From positions 1,624-65,623 of the forward strand of contig JAJZBM010000010.1 in the NCBI GenBank assembly GCA_021798915.1: 64,000 nt of DNA. The letters run 5' to 3'. Positions 21,272 through 29,341 of the stretch are shown in pieces. Numbering within the stretch: position 1 is the first letter of the stretch; each line of letters starts with the position of its first letter. The stretch comes from Pseudomonadota bacterium. Lineage in GTDB: Bacteria; Pseudomonadota; Alphaproteobacteria; Acetobacterales; Acetobacteraceae. The translations under genes and the position numbers were made by a program. The notes beneath the pieces were generated by a model. That model ran no database searches. It saw only the letters and a list, made by a program, of their open reading frames with translations, and had not been told where the DNA came from.

Positions 21272-21892
21272 ATGGCGCAAGCAGCGGCGCATCAGGGGGC
21301 GGATTGGTTTGAGGCGCGCGATCTGGCGGCGTTTCGTGGCGAGCGGCTGGTCTTGGAAGGCGTGTCGTTCCGGCTCGTGGCGGGCGGCGCGCTGTTGCTG
21401 CGGGGGCCGAACGGGGCGGGAAAATCGACGCTGCTCCGCGTGCTCGCCGGCCTCATTCCGCTGGCCGCCGGCGCTCTGCTGTGGCGGGGGGAGGACGCGC
21501 TCGCCGATCTTTCGCATCACGCCCGAAGATTGGCCTATCTCGGCCATCAGGACGCGGTGAAGCCGGGGTTTTCGGTTGCCGAAAACCTGGCCTTCGCCGC
21601 GGGCGGCGGCGATACCGGGGCGGCGCTGGCGGCCGTCAATCTCGGGCCACTCGCCGATTTGCCGGCGCGCTTCCTCTCCGCCGGTCAGCGCCGGCGGCTG
21701 GCGCTGGCGCGCCTGCCCCTGACGCGCGCCCCGCTTTGGCTGCTCGACGAGCCGGGCAACGGGCTCGACGATGCAGCGATCAAAGCCCTCGGGGCGCTTT
21801 CGGACCGGCATCGCGCCGCCGGCGGCATGGTGATCGCGGCGACACATCACGATTTGCCCTTTCCTGGCGCCGCGCAACTTTCCCTGACATGA
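21272..21892 (+). CDS. ccmA: Heme exporter ATP-binding protein CcmA
   Basis: 206 aa with Walker A GPNGAGKSTLLR, the signature LSAGQRRRLALARL and Walker B LWLLDEP. It is divergent from acnA. Confidence 0.9.
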   Translation: MAQAAAHQGADWFEARDLAAFRGERLVLEGVSFRLVAGGALLLRGPNGAGKSTLLRVLAGLIPLAAGALLWRGEDALADLSHHARRLAYLGHQDAVKPGFSVAENLAFAAGGGDTGAALAAVNLGPLADLPARFLSAGQRRRLALARLPLTRAPLWLLDEPGNGLDDAAIKALGALSDRHRAAGGMVIAATHHDLPFPGAAQLSLT

Positions 21893-22554
21893 CATTGTTT
21901 TTTTTACTCATTGCGCGTGAACTTCGGCTTTCGCTGCGTCACGGTGCCGATACCCTCGCTGCCCTGTTGTTCTTTTTTCTCGCCGGCACGCTCTTTCCCC
22001 TCGCCATCGGCCCGGGGCCGGAGGAATTGGCGCGGATCGCGCCGGGCATCGTCTGGGTTGCCGCCCTGCTCGCGGCGTTATTGCCGCTCGACCGGCTGTT
22101 CGGCGCCGATTTCGAGGATGGCGCGCTCGATCAATTGCTGCTCTCCGGCTTGCCGGCCGCCGCCATCGCGCTCGCCAAGGCGTGCGGTCACTGGCTGACG
22201 ACGGGCCTGCCGCTGCTGCTCGCCGCCGGGCCGCTGGCGCTCATGCTCAGGGTGCGGATGGAGATTTTGCCGGTGCTGCTCGGCGGCCTGCTGCCGGGGA
22301 CGCTGGCGCTCTCGCTGCTGGGCACGGCGGGGGCGGCGATCGTGCTCGGGGCGCGGCGGGGCGGCGTTTTGCTGCCGCTCCTGGTCCTGCCGCTCGCGGT
22401 GCCGGTGCTGATTTTCGGCACCACCGCCAGCGCCGCCGCCGCCGTTCACTTGCCGGTCCGGCCGCATCTCCTCCTTTTGCTCGCGGTGCTCGCGGTCTTG
22501 CTGCCGCTCGCGCCGCTCGCCGCCGGGGCGGCCTTGCGCGCCGCCGCCGAGTAG
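21889..22554 (+). CDS. ccmB: Heme exporter membrane protein CcmB
   Basis: The ATG at 21889 overlaps the ccmA stop (ATGA). 221-aa polytopic protein: MTLFFLLIARELRLSLRHG...FEDGALDQLLLSGLP. The longer track ORF from 21481 is an in-frame read-through artefact. Confidence 0.9.
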   Translation: MTLFFLLIARELRLSLRHGADTLAALLFFFLAGTLFPLAIGPGPEELARIAPGIVWVAALLAALLPLDRLFGADFEDGALDQLLLSGLPAAAIALAKACGHWLTTGLPLLLAAGPLALMLRVRMEILPVLLGGLLPGTLALSLLGTAGAAIVLGARRGGVLLPLLVLPLAVPVLIFGTTASAAAAVHLPVRPHLLLLLAVLAVLLPLAPLAAGAALRAAAE

Positions 22555-22598
22555 GGACAATGCGCGCCGCGTAACGCGCCAGACGAAGGGAGGCGGAA

Positions 22599-23381
22599 AT
22601 GGAACTCGGCCTGGCTGGAAAAACGGCGCTGATCACCGGGGCGAGCCGCGGGATCGGCCGCGCCATCGCCGAGGTGTTCGCCGCCGAGGGCTGCGCGCTC
22701 GTGCTCGCAAGCCGCGACCGGGGCGCGCTCGAGGCCGCGGCGGCGGAACTTCGTGCCGCGCATCAAGGCATCGCCATCACCCTTCATCCCGCCGATCTCG
22801 CGCGCGTCGCCGATCAGGAGGCGCTCGCCCGCGCCTGCCCGGCGCCCGACATCCTGGTCAACAACGCCGGCGCCAACCCGCCCGGAACCCTCGCCGAGAT
22901 CGATGACGCCACCTGGCGGGCCGCGTGGGATTTGAAGATGTTCGGCTTCATCAACCTCACCCGCGCCTGTTACGCCGGGATGGCGGCGCGGCGCTCGGGC
23001 GTGATCATCAATGTCATCGGCGCGGCGGGCGAGCGGCTCAACGCCCAGTATATTCTCGGCAGCACCGGCAATGCCGGGCTGATGGCGTTCACCCGGGCGC
23101 TCGGCAGCGCGTCCCCAGCGGATGGGGTGCGCGTCGTCGGCATCAACCCCGGCCTGACCGCGACCGAGCGCGCGACGATGCTGGTGGAGAGCTGGAGCCG
23201 TGCCGCCTTCGGCCGCCCCGATCGCGGGCAGGATCTGCCGCAGATCAAAAACCTCCCGTTCGGACGCATGGCGGCGGCGCGGGAAGTCGCCGATCTCGCC
23301 GCCTTCCTCGCCTCCGAGCGCGCCGGCTATATCAGCGGCACCATCGTCACCATCGATGGTGGCGCCACTAACCGGCACTGA
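22599..23381 (+). CDS. Short-chain dehydrogenase/reductase (SDR)
   Basis: 260 aa with TGASRGIGRAIA, NNAG and the ITG..V.IDGG tail. Confidence 0.9.
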   Translation: MELGLAGKTALITGASRGIGRAIAEVFAAEGCALVLASRDRGALEAAAAELRAAHQGIAITLHPADLARVADQEALARACPAPDILVNNAGANPPGTLAEIDDATWRAAWDLKMFGFINLTRACYAGMAARRSGVIINVIGAAGERLNAQYILGSTGNAGLMAFTRALGSASPADGVRVVGINPGLTATERATMLVESWSRAAFGRPDRGQDLPQIKNLPFGRMAAAREVADLAAFLASERAGYISGTIVTIDGGATNRH

Positions 23382-23386
23382 AACCA

Positions 23387-23430
23387 GACCGGCGGGCAGC
23401 GCTCGGCTGGGAAATTTTAACCCGCCGGTC
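23387..23430. other. Perfect 10-bp inverted repeat (gaccggcggg ... cccgccggtc) with a 24-nt spacer
   Basis: Arms at 23387-23396 and 23421-23430. It lies between the SDR stop (23381) and the start of the first paralogue (23472), with no T-run after it. Confidence 0.5.
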
Positions 23431-23471
23431 ATGTCTTCCTGCCAGAATCGCCGCTTCGGCGCGGAGAGGCG

Positions 23472-24848
23472 ATGGCGCAGGTGATTTCGCAGGCGATGGA
23501 TGAACGGATGGCGGGTGAGGGGATGGCGTCGCTCCCGGCCGAACGCGCGCTGCTGGAGACGGTGCGGCGGGTGATGCGGCGGCCGGCGGGATGGCGGGCT
23601 TTGGCTGTCCATGTCTCGCGCCTGCCCGAGCGCCGCCCCTATCATGGCCGCATCGCCCGCGCCCTGCTCGAAGAAGCGGCGCCCCGCGTCGATGGCCAGA
23701 TCCACGCCCTCGGCAACGGCGATCTCCTGCTCTTCTGCCGCCAGGACGCGCGCGCTCTGCGGGCCCTGGTCGCGGTCCTGGAGCGGCTGTTTCCCGAAAC
23801 CCTGGTCTCGCTCTGGTCGCTCGAAAGCGAGGCCTTGCATCTCATCGCCTATGCCGCGGGCCGGCTGACGGAAGCGACCAACGCCCCGCCACCGGCAGCG
23901 GCTGGAAAAATCCAAAATCTCGACCGGCTGTTCGACCCGCCGGCGGTGTCGGCTGCCGAATCGCCACCGCTCGGCGCCCTGATGCGGCGCGAAAGCGGGA
24001 TCCGCCTGGCGCAAGGACGCATGGAACGCGCATTCCGGGATTGGGGGATCGATCCGGCGCGGCTCATCGCCTGGGACGCGGCGGGGGCGGGGGCCGATCC
24101 GGCGCTGCTCCGCCATCGCCTCGGCGGTCTCGACGGCGATGTTCTGGCGGCCCTCGCCGCCGCCGCCGGAACCGGGCTGCCGCTCGACCCGGTGCCGCAT
24201 CGCGCCAGCCCGCCCGCTTGGCCGGGCGGGACGCCGCCCCCGCTCCATCTCCATCTCTCGCTCGCCGGGGTGATGGCAGCGGATTTTCCCCCGCTCGCGG
24301 CGCTTTTGCAGGAAAGCGGGGTCGGGCTCGCGATCGTCATCGCCTTCGAGGAGGCCTGCGCCGATCCGCCGTTGCTGGCGGCGGCGCGGCGCGTCATCGC
24401 CGCGTCCGGGGCGCTCTTCGGGCTCGATGACATCCATGCCGAGACGTTTTCCTGCGCCGTCCCGGCGGCGCTCGGGCCCGATTTCATGGTGGTCGATTTC
24501 AGCCCGGCGCTCGTCGAACGCACGGCACGCGATAGCACGCGGCTCTTTTATCCGCTCGGCGGCGATCAGGTGGTGCTTCGCGGCGCCGATGACGAGGCGG
24601 CGCTCGCCTGGGGCGTCGGGCGCGGCATAACCCTGTTCCAGGGCCGCCATGTCGCGGCGATGGCCGCGGCGGCGCGTATGTTCGCCTGCCCCTCGGCGCG
24701 GCACTGCACGCTCGGCCAATGCATCGCGCGCGCCGCCGCCGCCGACCCGGAGGGTCGCTTCGGCTGCGCCGAGCCGGCCCTGCTCGACGGCGCCCGCCCG
24801 GCATACGAATCCGAGGGCGGCCAAACCGGGGGGGACCAGGCGGCGTGA
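23472..24848 (+). CDS. Hypothetical protein, paralogue 1: degenerate GGDEF-like N-domain plus degenerate EAL-like C-domain (by-eye assignment)
   Basis: 458 aa in a strongly GC3-biased frame. Clear paralogy to the next gene. EAL-like remnants: LHLSLAGV, ALFGLDDIHAE, PDFMVVDFS, VVLRGADDEAALAWGVGRGITLFQG. GGDEF-like remnant: ALGNGDLLLFC. Confidence 0.75.
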   Translation: MAQVISQAMDERMAGEGMASLPAERALLETVRRVMRRPAGWRALAVHVSRLPERRPYHGRIARALLEEAAPRVDGQIHALGNGDLLLFCRQDARALRALVAVLERLFPETLVSLWSLESEALHLIAYAAGRLTEATNAPPPAAAGKIQNLDRLFDPPAVSAAESPPLGALMRRESGIRLAQGRMERAFRDWGIDPARLIAWDAAGAGADPALLRHRLGGLDGDVLAALAAAAGTGLPLDPVPHRASPPAWPGGTPPPLHLHLSLAGVMAADFPPLAALLQESGVGLAIVIAFEEACADPPLLAAARRVIAASGALFGLDDIHAETFSCAVPAALGPDFMVVDFSPALVERTARDSTRLFYPLGGDQVVLRGADDEAALAWGVGRGITLFQGRHVAAMAAAARMFACPSARHCTLGQCIARAAAADPEGRFGCAEPALLDGARPAYESEGGQTGGDQAA

Positions 24849-26023
24849 GCGCGTTCAATTTCTCCGCCTGGACCAGCACCACGGACGCCGCCGACAGTCT
24901 CGCCGGCGTCGTGCAATCCTGCGTGACCACCGCGACCGAGCGCCACGGCCTCGTTCTCCGGCTCGATCTGCTGCCGCCGTCCTGCGCCAAGCCGCATCAT
25001 TTCCGCCTGTTCCGCGCCGCCCTCGACCCGTTGCTGGAGGCCGATCGCGCCAGCGCCTTCCGCCTCCCGAACGAGGCGGTGGTGGTGATCTGGCGCGGCC
25101 CCGGCGGGCATCATCTGGAGCGCGCCTTGGCCGCCATCCGTCATCTTCTCGCCGATATGCCGGAGCGCCTGCCGGAATGGGAGGCGCTGGCCGAGACGTT
25201 CCGCCTCCCCGAGGCGGCCGATACCCTGCTCGGCCTGATCGCCGCGAGCGAGCCCGCCGCACGCGCCGGGGCGTTGGCCCGGGACGGCGCTAGCGCCCCA
25301 CTCGGCGCGATCGATCCGGCGCTGTTGCCGCTTCTGGAGCGCAACCTGGTGCAGGTCGATCTCTCCTCCTTCATCCGCCGGCGCCCGGTCTCGCGGCTGG
25401 AGGAGAGCGGACGGATGGCGCGGCAATGGGAGGAGCGGGGGCTCGCCTTCGCCGATCTCGCCGCCATGCTGGTGCCGGGGCGAAGCCTGACCGCATCGCC
25501 CTGGCTGCTCCATTATCTGAGCCGAATTCTCGACCGCCGCGTCCTCGCTTTGCTCACCGCGCCGGATGAACTCCGCGAGGCGCCGCCATTCGCGCTCAAT
25601 CTCCGGGTGGAGAGCGTGTTGTCGGCGGAGTTTTTGCGCTTCGACCGGGCTTTGCCGGCGGGGTTGCGCGGTGAATTGCTGATCAATCTCAGGCCGACGG
25701 ATATTCTCGCCGATCCCGCGGCATTTCGCTTCGCGCGTGAATTCGCCCGCGCGCGTGGCTATCGGATCGTGCTCCGCGGCCTCTCCCGCGCCCTACTGGC
25801 GGCTTTTCCGCTCGCTCCGGAGGGGCCCGATCTGCTGCAATTCCGCTTCCAGCCGGGCTATGCCGAGGGCGGACTGCCGCGCGGGATCGACCCGCGGCGC
25901 CTCATTCTCGCCGGCGTCGACGGGCCGGCGGCGCTGAATTGGGGCAGGGCAGGGGGGATCATCTTGTTCAAGGGCAGCCTCGCCCGCCCCCTCGTTGCCG
26001 CTCCGTTCGTCACCGCGATGTGA
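24845..26023 (+). CDS. Hypothetical protein, paralogue 2: degenerate GGDEF-like plus fully degenerate EAL-like domain (by-eye assignment)
   Basis: The GTG at 24845 overlaps the upstream stop (GTGA). 392 aa. FALNLRVESVLSAEF, LLINLRPTDILADP, YRIVLRGLS, PDLLQFRFQP and LILAGVDGPAALNWGRAGGIILFKG align with paralogue 1. The start is uncertain because the track ORF begins at 24719. Confidence 0.7.
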   Translation: MSAFNFSAWTSTTDAADSLAGVVQSCVTTATERHGLVLRLDLLPPSCAKPHHFRLFRAALDPLLEADRASAFRLPNEAVVVIWRGPGGHHLERALAAIRHLLADMPERLPEWEALAETFRLPEAADTLLGLIAASEPAARAGALARDGASAPLGAIDPALLPLLERNLVQVDLSSFIRRRPVSRLEESGRMARQWEERGLAFADLAAMLVPGRSLTASPWLLHYLSRILDRRVLALLTAPDELREAPPFALNLRVESVLSAEFLRFDRALPAGLRGELLINLRPTDILADPAAFRFAREFARARGYRIVLRGLSRALLAAFPLAPEGPDLLQFRFQPGYAEGGLPRGIDPRRLILAGVDGPAALNWGRAGGIILFKGSLARPLVAAPFVTAM

Positions 26024-26038: not shown

Positions 26039-26440
26039 TTATTGTTGGCGGCGGTATTGTGCCTCGGTGACGTGTTCCATCCAGGTGACCGGCGTGCCGT
26101 CCCGCCTTTCCTGGATGGCGATATGGCTCATCGCCGTGGTCGGCGTCGCGCCATGCCAGTGTTTCTCGCCGGGCGCGAACCAGACGACATCACCGGGCCG
26201 GATTTCCTCGACCGCGCCGCCATCACGCTGGACCCAGCCGCAGCCGGCGGTGACGATCAGGGTCTGGCCGAACGGGTGCGTATGCCAAGCGGTGCGGGCA
26301 CCCGGCTCGAAGGTGACGAGGGCACCGCCGGCCCGCGCCGGGTCTGGCGCGGTAAATAGCGGGTCGATCCGCACCGATCCGGTGAAATATTCGGAAACCC
26401 CCTTGGTCGAGGGCTGTGAGCCGGCGCGCCTGATGTCCAT
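26039..26440 (-). CDS. Cupin-domain protein
   Basis: 133 aa with cupin motifs [18 protein letters not shown] and [16 protein letters not shown]. Confidence 0.85.
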
Positions 26441-26636: not shown

Positions 26637-27533
26637 ATGAAACGCACGCTTACCATCGTTTTTCTGGTCGCAATCATCGGCGTGATGACTGGGTTGGTCT
26701 CATACTCGGTGACCATTTACCGTCTGTTCTGCCAGGTGACCGGCGCCGGCGGCACCACCCAGCGCGCCAGCGCCGATACCGGGCCGACACTGGCGCGGAC
26801 GGTCACGGTGTATTTCGACACCAACGTCGCGCCCGGCCTGCCGTGGCGCTTCGTTGCGCTCCAGAGATCGATCAAGGTGCATCTCGGGCAGCAGGCTTTG
26901 GTCTATTTCGAGGCGGAAAATCGCTCGGATACCGATATCGTCGGCCACGCCACCTTCAACGTGACGCCGGACAAGGTCGGGGTCTATTTCAAGAAGATCC
27001 AATGCTTCTGCTTCACCGAGGAACGTCTTGAAGCGCATAAGAAAGTCGAGATGCCGGTGACGTTTTTCGTCGATCCGCGCCTCGCCGATGACCGCGGCAC
27101 GGCGGATGTCGATGAGATTACCCTGTCCTATACGTTTTTCCGCTCGGCGCGGCCGGAAGGCGCCGAAGACCTGGCGCGTTTCAGCCAGGGTGCCAGCGCC
27201 GGGGCCGGCAAGGCGCTATTCGAGAGCCAGTGTGCCGGGTGCCACGGCATCATGACCGCCAAAGCCGGCCCGCCGCTCGCCGGCATCGTCGGCCGGGCGG
27301 CGGGGGGCGCGTCGGGCTATCCGTATTCGCTGGCGCTCGCGCAATCGGGGCTGGTGTGGACGGAGACGACGCTCGATCACTGGCTGGCCGGGCCGCAGAC
27401 GCTGGTTCCCGGCGCGTTGATGCCGATGGCGGTTCCCGACGAATCGGCGCGGCGCGACATCATCGCCTATCTCAAGACCCTGGGCGCGGCCCAGCAGAGC
27501 GGGGAGAGCCCGACGAAGCCGCCGCCGGGGTGA
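26637..27533 (+). CDS. ctaG: Cytochrome c oxidase assembly protein CtaG/Cox11 fused to a C-terminal class I cytochrome c domain
   Basis: N-terminal TM anchor, then the Cox11 core (LFCQVTG.GGTTQ, ATFNVTP.KVGVYFKKIQCFCFTEE). About 100 extra residues follow, carrying the heme motif CAGCHG and a distal LMPM Met candidate. Confidence 0.8.
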   Translation: MKRTLTIVFLVAIIGVMTGLVSYSVTIYRLFCQVTGAGGTTQRASADTGPTLARTVTVYFDTNVAPGLPWRFVALQRSIKVHLGQQALVYFEAENRSDTDIVGHATFNVTPDKVGVYFKKIQCFCFTEERLEAHKKVEMPVTFFVDPRLADDRGTADVDEITLSYTFFRSARPEGAEDLARFSQGASAGAGKALFESQCAGCHGIMTAKAGPPLAGIVGRAAGGASGYPYSLALAQSGLVWTETTLDHWLAGPQTLVPGALMPMAVPDESARRDIIAYLKTLGAAQQSGESPTKPPPG

Positions 27534-27569
27534 GGATCGGGCGGGCTGATTTCCGCCATTCCGCGCCGC

Positions 27570-27610
27570 TTAAAATCGTATAATTTATATTATGGAAAGA
27601 ATAGTGTCGG
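27570..27610 (+). promoter_or_regulatory. AT-rich island upstream of nrdB with a perfect TATAAT hexamer (27579-27584)
   Basis: ttaaaatcgtataatttatattatggaaagaatagtgtc is very AT-rich for this genome. It contains the inverted repeat ataat-ttat-attat. No convincing -35 element was seen. Confidence 0.3.
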
Positions 27611-27679
27611 CAGGCTTGACCCGACTGGCCCGGCTGAGGGATGGAATGGCCGAGGTTACCTGGATCGAAAGGACCGCGC

Positions 27680-28696
27680 ATGACCGACCACGCCGCCGAG
27701 ACCCCGATCCGGTTCGATCTCCTGACCGAGAACCCGGTCTATAAGCCATTCCGCTACCCGTGGGCGTATGATGCGTGGCTGACGCAGCAGCGCATCCACT
27801 GGCTGCCCGAGGAAGTGCCACTCGCCGATGACGTCAAGGACTGGCACCGCAACCTCAGCGCGGGCGAGCGCCATCTGCTGACGCAGATTTTCCGCTTTTT
27901 CACGCAAGCGGATGTTGAAGTGAATAATTGCTATATGAAGTACTACGCGCGGGTGTTCAAGCCGACCGAAATTCTGATGATGCTGGCTTCGTTCTCGAAC
28001 ACCGAAACGATCCATATTGCCGCCTATAGTCATCTCCTCGATACCATCGGTATGCCGGAAATAGAGTATCAAGCTTTCTTGAAATACAAAGAAATGAAAG
28101 ACAAATACGATTATATGCAGGGATTTAGCGTCGATAGTAAATACCAGATTGCGCGTACCATGGCGGCTTTCGGCGCTTTTACCGAAGGATTACAGCTTTT
28201 CGCTTCCTTCGCGATTTTGCTCAATTTTCCGCGCTTTGGCAAGATGAAGGGGATGGGCCAGATCATTTCCTGGTCGGTGCGCGACGAGACTTTGCATTGC
28301 CTGTCCATCATCCGCCTATTCCGCGATTTCGTCGCCGAAAACCCCGAAGTCTGGAACGATACGCTGAAGGCGGATCTGACCGAGGTCTGCGCCACCATCG
28401 TCGCGCATGAGGACGCGTTCATCGACCTCGCTTTCGCGGGCGGAGCGGTCGAGGGGCTCGATGCGGCGACGGTCAAGCGCTATATCCGCTACATCGCCGA
28501 TCGCCGGTTGACGCAGCTCGGCCTCGACCCGCTCTATACCGAGGCGACGAACCCCCTGCCCTGGCTCGATGAGATGCTGAATGCGGTCGAACATGCCAAT
28601 TTCTTCGAAAATCGCGCCACCGAATATAGCCGCGCCGCGACCACCGGGAGCTGGGAGGAGGCGTTTGCCGACCAGATCTCGCCCCCGTCGTCATGA
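27680..28696 (+). CDS. nrdB: Class Ia ribonucleotide reductase small (beta, R2) subunit
   Basis: Diiron and radical-site residues are present: FFTQADVEV (Asp ligand), SNTETIHIAAYSHL (Glu/His plus radical Tyr at +7), FTEGLQLF, VRDETLH, and the C-terminal NFFENRATEYSRA radical-transfer Tyr. Start at Met14 (MTDHAAE). No nrdA lies in the window. Confidence 0.9.
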   Translation: MTDHAAETPIRFDLLTENPVYKPFRYPWAYDAWLTQQRIHWLPEEVPLADDVKDWHRNLSAGERHLLTQIFRFFTQADVEVNNCYMKYYARVFKPTEILMMLASFSNTETIHIAAYSHLLDTIGMPEIEYQAFLKYKEMKDKYDYMQGFSVDSKYQIARTMAAFGAFTEGLQLFASFAILLNFPRFGKMKGMGQIISWSVRDETLHCLSIIRLFRDFVAENPEVWNDTLKADLTEVCATIVAHEDAFIDLAFAGGAVEGLDAATVKRYIRYIADRRLTQLGLDPLYTEATNPLPWLDEMLNAVEHANFFENRATEYSRAATTGSWEEAFADQISPPSS

Positions 28697-28720: not shown

Positions 28721-29341
28721 ATGAAGGCCCCGCTTCGCCTGGCGTTTTCCGGCGCACTGATCCTGCTGGTGCTCGCCGGCGCGATCCTCTGGCTCACCCG
28801 CCCCGGGCCCGGCGGCGCGCCCGATGCCGCGATCGCGCTGCCCGCCGGCACCCGAATCGGCGGGCCATTCACCCTCATCGACGATCAAAACCGCCCGGTG
28901 ACCGACGAAACCTATCATGGCCGCTGGCTATTGATCTATTTTGGCTATACTTTCTGCCCCGATGTTTGCCCGACGACCTTGCAAACCATCGCCAACGCCC
29001 TTGATAGATTAGGCAAGACCAGCGCCCGGATCACGCCGCTGTTCATCACCGTCGATCCGGCGCGCGATACGCCTTCGGTGATGGCGCGTTATGTTCGCCA
29101 GTTCGATAGCCGAATAGTCGGCCTCACCGGCAGCGAGCCGCAAATCGCCGCAATCGCCAAAGCCTACCGGGTCTATTACGCCAAGGAAACGCCCAAGGAT
29201 GGAACCGCCTACACCATGGACCACTCTTCCTTTCTCTATCTGATGGATCCTAAGGGTGGACTCGCCGCCCTGTTCGGGCCGCAAGTGACGGCGGCCGAAC
29301 TCGCCGCGGCGATTGGACAAAAATTGGGACAAGACAAGTGA
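28721..29341 (+). CDS. SCO1/SenC-family copper chaperone (thioredoxin fold)
   Basis: 206 aa with an N-terminal signal/anchor, LIYFGYTFCPDVCPTTL (CxxxC) and the distal His in MDHSSFLYLMDP. Confidence 0.9.
   Translation: MKAPLRLAFSGALILLVLAGAILWLTRPGPGGAPDAAIALPAGTRIGGPFTLIDDQNRPVTDETYHGRWLLIYFGYTFCPDVCPTTLQTIANALDRLGKTSARITPLFITVDPARDTPSVMARYVRQFDSRIVGLTGSEPQIAAIAKAYRVYYAKETPKDGTAYTMDHSSFLYLMDPKGGLAALFGPQVTAAELAAAIGQKLGQDK

Follow-up and report, generated by a model that had tools for sequence, protein, structure and literature searches.

We analyzed a pair of adjacent genes, here called par1 and par2, in a 64,000-nucleotide stretch of DNA from a Pseudomonadota bacterium of the family Acetobacteraceae (assembly GCA_021798915.1, contig JAJZBM010000010.1, positions 1,624 to 65,623; hereafter the window). 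The results suggest, with a probability that we put at about 0.6, that the pair is an obligate and probably heteromeric module of co-translated GGDEF-EAL pseudo-enzymes. A sequence-only reading had described the two as coupled paralogues of doubly degenerate GGDEF-EAL architecture, and this description is carried by the predicted fold and by a sequence link to EAL domains. The novelty lies in a two-gene, asymmetric form of degenerate GGDEF-EAL proteins that bears a four-cysteine (Cys4) module and goes undetected by domain databases. No such pair was known to the earlier reader, and a literature search over 8 million full texts likewise yielded no description of the family.

The two open reading frames (ORFs) and their overlap were reproduced in the sequence. 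The par1 gene (23472-24848, + strand) starts with ATG and encodes 458 amino acids comprising a GGDEF-like domain, an EAL-like domain and a Cys4 tail. It is preceded by a Shine-Dalgarno-like GGAGAGG (23463-23469, +), read directly in the sequence 2 nt 5' of the ATG. The par2 gene (24845-26023, +) starts with GTG and encodes 392 amino acids with GGDEF-like and EAL-like domains and no cysteine tail. The two genes share a GTGA junction (24845-24848, +), in which the par2 GTG (24845-24847) overlaps the par1 TGA (24846-24848), an arrangement indicating translational coupling. On identical metagenome contigs an independent gene caller arrived at both genes and at their 4-nt overlap, and the protein called there (P0001) is 100% identical to par1 of the window. 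An in-frame ATG at 24719 was considered as the par2 start and is improbable, because the orthologues begin with MSAFNFSAW and 60 of 81 related loci share the 4-nt overlap.

All motif strings quoted in the sequence-only reading were found in the translations. The paralogy that it had drawn from them was borne out by BLASTP (E = 1e-9, 30% identity over 240 amino acids of the C-terminal halves), and the family hidden Markov model (HMM) of either paralogue cross-matched the other at 84-88 bits. Purifying selection acts on both genes: dN/dS relative to the nearest orthologue (locus L007) was 0.23 for par1 and 0.16 for par2, within a range of 0.16-0.41 over the orthologues. The GC content at third codon positions (GC3) was 0.83-0.84 in the called frame, similar to that of the adjoining genes.

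The fold of the two proteins was predicted with AlphaFold2 from a 66-sequence alignment, resulting in mean predicted local distance difference test (pLDDT) values of 89.7 for par2 and 87.2 for par1. When the models were compared with the PDB by Foldseek, the top 50 matches of both were all EAL-containing structures, with PaMorA (4rnf) as the best match (E = 1.2e-13 for par2 and 8e-10 for par1), followed by PA0861/RbdA, PA0575, the Vibrio cholerae and Pseudomonas fluorescens LapD proteins and DosP. Tandem GGDEF-EAL crystal structures ranked first for both models, as the earlier reading would have it, and were aligned over about 430 columns with E values of 1e-13 to 1e-9. Structures containing EAL alone (FimX, LapD-EAL, YahA and PdeA) matched at E values of 1e-7 to 1e-5 with template modelling (TM) scores, given as TMt, of 0.50-0.59. 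Whole-chain TM scores against the tandem structures were low (0.3-0.4, with a root-mean-square deviation of 12-20 Å), which we attribute to a different orientation of the two domains relative to each other. The models thus predict an EAL barrel fold for both par1 and par2, at 23964-24647 (+; about residues 165-392) and 25307-25984 (+; about residues 155-380) respectively.

The sequence link to EAL was obtained through other family members. The PF00563 EAL HMM left both window proteins unmatched. Weak, sub-threshold Pfam EAL matches occurred in 11 of 66 family members, the next recurrent family being Glyoxalase_4 with 2 members. Individually, P0009 matched Pfam EAL at E = 1.5e-4, and the 712-residue P0070, which matches the family profile at E = 2e-132, reached E = 7.7e-14 and 52.1 bits, well over the gathering score (31.3). 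By hhalign, the EAL region of the par1 family aligned with a small E. coli EAL alignment over 217 columns (Prob 72%, E = 3.5e-5); with a pooled family alignment the register was unchanged and the match weaker. This register agrees with the motif order first read by eye, pairing RRRPV with QPI, INLRP with ExTE, LRG/LDD with DDFG, AGVD/RGAD with EGVE and FKG/FQG with QG. Taken together, the window sequences have no Pfam match and the family sequences connect them to EAL transitively; on this basis the EAL homology of the family is supported at the sequence level. Searches of the PDB by sequence and profile with both family alignments, the Cys4-tail alignment and P0070 returned chance matches only. 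When the window and the loci were searched with an HMM of E. coli GGDEF-EAL modules, it picked up no family member and no canonical GGDEF/EAL ORF either.

The N-terminal regions were modelled as GGDEF-like domains, located at 23529-23876 (+; about residues 20-135) in par1 and at 24872-25210 (+; about residues 10-122) in par2. At the place of the GGDEF motif the par1 model has a beta-hairpin turn, G81-N-G-D-L85, between strands E76-79 and E85-90, and the par2 model has P75-N-E-A-V79 between strands E70-73 and E78-83, so that GNGDL and PNEAV stand where the sequence-only reading had placed them. The hairpin is conserved in par1-type proteins (N in 89, G in 95 and D in 110 of 127), and the par2 family consensus is PNGD. 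The beta-alpha-alpha-beta-beta-alpha-beta order fits a GGDEF domain, and for the par2 model the tandem GGDEF-EAL structures matched about 10^6 better in E than the EAL-only structures; the BLUF-EAL protein BlrP1 also matched over its full length. The proposed GGDEF-like core is thus a putative assignment from the fold with no counterpart in sequence profiles, as PF00990 had no match among the 66 family members at E <= 0.1 and hhalign against E. coli GGDEF domains was non-significant (E = 0.72), though in the expected register. On reading the family alignment no RxxD I-site was seen at the expected offset.

The residues of the EAL pocket were then mapped through the hhalign register. At the positions of the canonical Q of QPI, N of NxS, E of ExTE, D of DDFG, K of KxD, general-base E, last E of EGVE and Q of QG, par1 carries E174, H261, V289, D319, V340, R370, D373 and Q390, and par2 carries R180, N252, N281, R311, Q332, A356, D359 and K376. 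Accordingly, the catalytic set N/E/DD/K/general-base E/Q reads H, V, DD, V, R, Q in par1 and N, N, RG, Q, A, K in par2. Most metal ligands are also replaced in the window proteins, and the replacement of the EAL signatures in both paralogues, noticed at first sight of the translations, is plain from these residues. The general-base glutamate was absent from every family member examined and the GG(D/E)EF motif was retained in none, the hairpin consensus being NGD. Because both are missing family-wide, synthesis or hydrolysis of bis-(3'-5')-cyclic dimeric guanosine monophosphate (c-di-GMP) by the pair appears very unlikely.

A pocket score was calculated over seven residues (Q, N, E, D, K, D/E and Q), leaving out the general base. 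Judged by this score, the pair is asymmetric in most genomes, with a near-canonical pocket in par1 (7/7 residues in 58 of 74 genomes, usually with a His in place of the general base) and a degenerate one in par2 (median 2/7). In the window the scores are 3/7 for par1 and 2/7 for par2, and the par1 proteins of related loci score 2/7 (L007) and 3/7 (L009), so the residues indicate that the par1 pocket is decayed in this clade. For this reason c-di-GMP binding is predicted to be less likely for the window copies than for typical family members.

A feature overlooked by the sequence-only reading is a C-terminal extension of about 50 residues that follows the EAL-like domain of par1. It contains a Cys4 module (24648-24791, +; residues 393-440) with the pattern C406-x5-C412-x4-C417-x14-C432, a putative metal or iron-sulphur (Fe-S) site modelled at pLDDT 92-97. 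Of 127 par1-type proteins, 122-123 keep the four cysteines; none of the 157 par2-type proteins has them. The tail is likely a metal, Fe-S or redox site. The spacing is loosely reminiscent of the cysteine clusters of Rrf2-type Fe-S regulators. The earlier statement that the pair has no sensor, transmembrane or receiver domain was right in that neither a convincing transmembrane segment nor such Pfam domains were found in par1 or par2, and not quite right about the sensor, given the conserved tail.

An exhaustive profile search, counted in 50%-identity representative clusters, returned a family of at least 1,867 clusters at E <= 1e-3 and 914 at E <= 1e-30; word-indexed searches yielded only a few dozen unannotated homologues. 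The named cluster members examined were all labelled as hypothetical proteins except P0009, which bears the JGI label "EAL domain-containing protein". A survey of species-representative genomes, skewed to par2 relatives carrying two specific peptides, gave 80 loci, nearly all from metagenome-assembled genomes (MAGs) of Acetobacteraceae or Rhodospirillales, plus Limobrevibacterium gyesilva; Roseomonas proteins were also present among the homologues. Outside the EAL signatures, the family conserves residues of its own (RRRP, DRR, ADxLAD, ARxFARARGYR and W366).

The conservation of the pair itself was assessed on 87 loci, in 81 of which the gene immediately 5' of a par2-type gene is of par1 type. 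The remaining six comprise four cut contigs, a fused ORF (L011) and one locus (L073) without a par1 ORF scoring above 200 bits. A 4-nt stop/start overlap occurs in 60 of the 81 paired loci (ATGA in 40, GTGA in 20). Among the 21 without it, a candidate start falls no more than about 22 nt from the stop in about 14, and in 6 no candidate is nearer than about 84 nt. In a lineage of 58.7% GC, P0070 (locus L092, 4406-6544) is a natural fusion with the order GGDEF-like/EAL-like/EAL-like, both EAL halves of which retain Q/N/E/D/K/Q. Apparent par1-par2 read-through fusions were also seen in MAG and metagenome data (L011, 4354-7134; P0069; P0124). A 1-nt indel at an ATGA junction would suffice to create such ORFs; they may be assembly errors and for this reason were not used as evidence of fusion.

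The genes around the pair were compared across the same loci. In the usual arrangement an hldE-like gene (-) and a PrpA/ApaH-like Metallophos gene (-) precede par1 and par2, and a DrrA/NodI-like ABC ATPase, an ABC-2 permease and a His_Phos_1 gene follow (about 42 of 80 loci, 71 of which have more than 1.8 kb downstream), with a Ysc84 gene after them. The Metallophos gene is the most persistent neighbour, adjoining par1 in 57 of 80 genome loci (65 with more than 2.5 kb upstream), and lies directly upstream on the opposite strand in L003-L005 and most of L010-L086. This calcineurin-type phosphoesterase could be a functional partner of the pair; it is absent from the 64-kb window. The P0070 fusion keeps the neighbours typical of the family: next to it is a divergent Metallophos gene, and Ysc84 lies downstream. 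Sugar-nucleotide genes (an epimerase, CTP_transf_3 and NTP_transf_3) are also found near it.

The window's clade departs from this order. In the window and in L001/L002, L007 and L008 the pair is preceded by ccmA, ccmB and a short-chain dehydrogenase/reductase (SDR) gene, and a convergent cupin gene follows it in the window, L001/L002 and L007, the L008 contig ending at that point. In L009 the upstream genes are instead CarD, a pyrroloquinoline quinone (PQQ) dehydrogenase and a cytochrome c. The pair thus shifts as a unit among three contexts within the clade, and for this reason the suspected synteny break after ccmAB was upheld: the ancestral order Metallophos/pair/ABC-2 exporter has been replaced here. 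The clade with the decayed par1 pocket is the same clade that has lost the ancestral neighbourhood. An equation of ccmAB with the ABC-2 exporter of other loci was rejected, as ccmA and ccmB pass their equivalog cut-offs and the exporter is of the generic DrrA/NodI-like kind.

These results can be assembled into a model of an obligate pseudo-enzyme module. Both subunits would descend from a duplicated GGDEF-EAL protein, and each would be a cytoplasmic protein made of a diverged GGDEF-like domain, a long helix and an EAL-like barrel. Par1 and par2 would associate as a 1:1 heteromer, probably through their EAL-like domains, an arrangement suggested by the strict par1-par2 order, the stop/start overlap and the natural fusion in another lineage; we infer this heteromer, as we do metal binding and the presence or absence of a ligand. 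In typical genomes par1 would act as the sensing subunit, because of its near-canonical nucleotide pocket and its Cys4 tail, and the fully degenerate par2 would serve as a scaffold or output subunit. Since both pockets are degenerate in the window, signalling of this pair through protein-protein contacts appears more likely, by analogy, than classic c-di-GMP reception, and the Cys4 site would be its sole recognisable input.

For this last mode the best functional analogy would be offered by YdiV of E. coli and Salmonella, BluF/YcgF and CsrD, dead EAL proteins that act through protein or RNA contacts without c-di-GMP. These "class 3" EAL proteins resemble the window proteins in having the EAL fold with the metal-binding and catalytic residues replaced. 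They differ in being single-gene products that have different partner domains or lack any, and to our knowledge none has been described as a co-translated paralogous pair or with a Cys4 tail. Degenerate GGDEF/EAL proteins of E. coli are the subject of PMC5635695 and PMC5052742.

Several observations weigh against the proposed module. Coupling and co-occurrence would also be compatible with two proteins acting sequentially. Pfam and NCBIfam scans of par1 and par2 from the window gave no match even at E <= 10, and the equivalent of the EAL-motif glutamate (and arginine) was not mapped with confidence. The GGDEF-like assignment is a structural one, and a ferredoxin-like domain could resemble BLUF, BlrP1 being among the Foldseek matches. 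No relative of the Cys4 module was found in the PDB or Pfam, and metal or Fe-S binding is a guess made from cysteine spacing and invariance. Finally, degenerate EAL domains such as that of FimX bind c-di-GMP without metal ligands, and therefore the loss of canonical residues is no proof of lost binding.

The last point leads to the explanation that survives best beside the pseudo-enzyme module, namely a receptor of the LapD/FimX type in which c-di-GMP would still occupy at least one of the EAL-like pockets and, once bound, change the conformation of the heteromer and its interaction with a target. We regard it as unlikely. LapD and FimX share with the pair the tandem GGDEF-like and EAL-like fold and the loss of catalytic motifs; their structures (6pwj/6pwk, 3pjw, 3pju, 4fok and 4j40) are among the best Foldseek matches, with TMt of 0.54-0.59 for the EAL domains. 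Typical par1 proteins retain all seven scored pocket residues, and the ABC-2 exporter that follows the pair in most genomes recalls the control of secretion by c-di-GMP. The Acetobacteraceae are rich in c-di-GMP signalling. Komagataeibacter xylinus is a documented case (PMC6559022). Against reception in the window speak the pocket scores given above, with Gln, Asn, Glu and Lys of par1 all replaced, and the loss of the ancestral neighbourhood.

The comparison also brings out differences in architecture. In LapD the extra modules are transmembrane, periplasmic and HAMP, and in FimX they are REC and PAS, whereas the window pair has no accessory Pfam domain and no transmembrane segment, its models consisting of two domains plus the par1 Cys4 tail. 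LapD and FimX are encoded by single genes recognized by Pfam, whereas the window family is a two-gene pair, invisible to Pfam, with the cysteines on one subunit, and the window copies, unlike LapD and FimX, have lost most pocket residues. A genomic parallel within the same bacterial family is given by the cdg operons of K. xylinus, in which pdeA lies upstream of dgc and both encode PAS-GGDEF-EAL proteins (PMC6559022), that is, tandem paralogous GGDEF-EAL genes in one operon. Those proteins are active, with opposite activities, recognisable motifs and haem or flavin PAS sensors (PMC6559022), whereas the window proteins have no PAS domain, have lost the catalytic motifs and are much shorter.

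A bolder extension of the module, which we consider rather improbable, is that the family represents a new class of obligate heterodimeric GGDEF-EAL pseudo-enzymes, present in nearly all Acetobacteraceae/Rhodospirillales loci of this survey, in which par1 would integrate a nucleotide signal (c-di-GMP or a relative) with a metal, Fe-S or redox signal from the Cys4 site and par2 would transmit the output. Ancestrally this output would be directed to the adjacent ABC-2 exporter or to the PrpA/ApaH-like phosphoesterase, and the window clade would be a natural "ligand-blind" derivative responding to redox or metal input only. Degenerate GGDEF-EAL proteins such as LapD, FimX, CsrD and YdiV hold key positions in the second-messenger signalling of bacteria; every one known to us is a single polypeptide that domain databases recognize. 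A heteromer sensing both a nucleotide and a redox or metal signal would be a new architecture for c-di-GMP signalling, in the very bacterial family in which c-di-GMP was discovered (PMC6559022). Censuses of GGDEF and EAL proteins based on Pfam would miss these genes, and the series from par1 with an intact pocket, through the decayed pocket of the window clade, to the fused orthologue provides ready comparisons for experiments.

A further alternative, which seems to us quite unlikely, is that the pocket has been repurposed for another small ligand unrelated to c-di-GMP, such as a nucleotide, 5'-phosphoguanylyl-guanosine (pGpG), a cofactor or a metal. The strongly conserved non-EAL residues listed above and the invariant Cys4 site would fit this idea, as would the persistence of the PrpA/ApaH-like phosphoesterase beside the pair (57 of 80 loci, and also L092) and the position of the window-clade pairs among ccmAB, ctaG and sco1 or beside the PQQ dehydrogenase and cytochrome c. 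The neighbours, however, are housekeeping genes whose common order may merely reflect synteny among relatives, and the sequence gives no pointer to any ligand.

It is highly improbable that either protein, or both, has kept phosphodiesterase or diguanylate cyclase activity through unorthodox chemistry. The LDD of par1 at the DDFG position and the histidine that takes the place of the general base in typical par1 proteins (35 of 74 genomes) could be read in this sense; in the window proteins, however, other residues stand in place of the ExTE Glu, the general-base Glu and the catalytic Lys, and in par1 also of the pocket Asn, the GG(D/E)EF motif is absent and neither EAL nor GGDEF is matched by Pfam. 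The canonical EAL phosphodiesterases (PdeL/YahA, PdeH, RocR, MorA and DosP) have a homologous barrel and the same order of motif positions, whereas the window proteins lack the general base, the lysine and metal ligands.

The notion that the ORFs are functionless remnants or chance frames is scarcely credible: GC-rich DNA does yield long spurious ORFs, such as a 792-residue antisense frame at 22446-24824, and conserved pocket residues are missing from the window clade, but dN/dS of 0.16-0.41 across orthologues, GC3 of 0.83-0.84 in the called frame, hundreds of homologues, high-confidence folds and the retained Cys4 motif stand against it.

That antisense ORF (- strand) lies opposite real genes, and another of 894 amino acids lies opposite aconitase; such long antisense frames are typical artefacts of GC-rich DNA and not genes. 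Scans for promoters and terminators gave signals at the level expected by chance and were uninformative, blastn against plasmids returned no match, and PADLOC defence-protein models gave no match at E <= 1; the chromosomal setting of the pair is one of housekeeping genes.

The window pair is located among genes for respiratory-chain biogenesis, as judged from the nearby ccmAB, CtaG/Cox11-cytochrome c and SCO1 genes. Upstream, ccmA and ccmB (21272-22554) are both above NCBIfam equivalog cut-offs, and within 21272-23381 they are followed by the SDR gene and then the pair, not by ccmC. Downstream, the 133-residue cupin (26039-26440, -) is convergent with par2 across a 15-nt gap and scores 204 bits as an (R)-mandelonitrile lyase, higher than the NCBIfam equivalog cut-off of 140. 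It is followed by an ORF (26637-27533, +) in which a CtaG/Cox11 copper insertion domain is fused to a C-terminal cytochrome c domain, by the small subunit of ribonucleotide reductase (27641-28696) and by SCO1 (28721-29341). The ribonucleotide reductase gene sits in a GC trough at 27500-28500, where the GC fraction is 0.53-0.59 compared with 0.62-0.74 over most of the profiled stretch.

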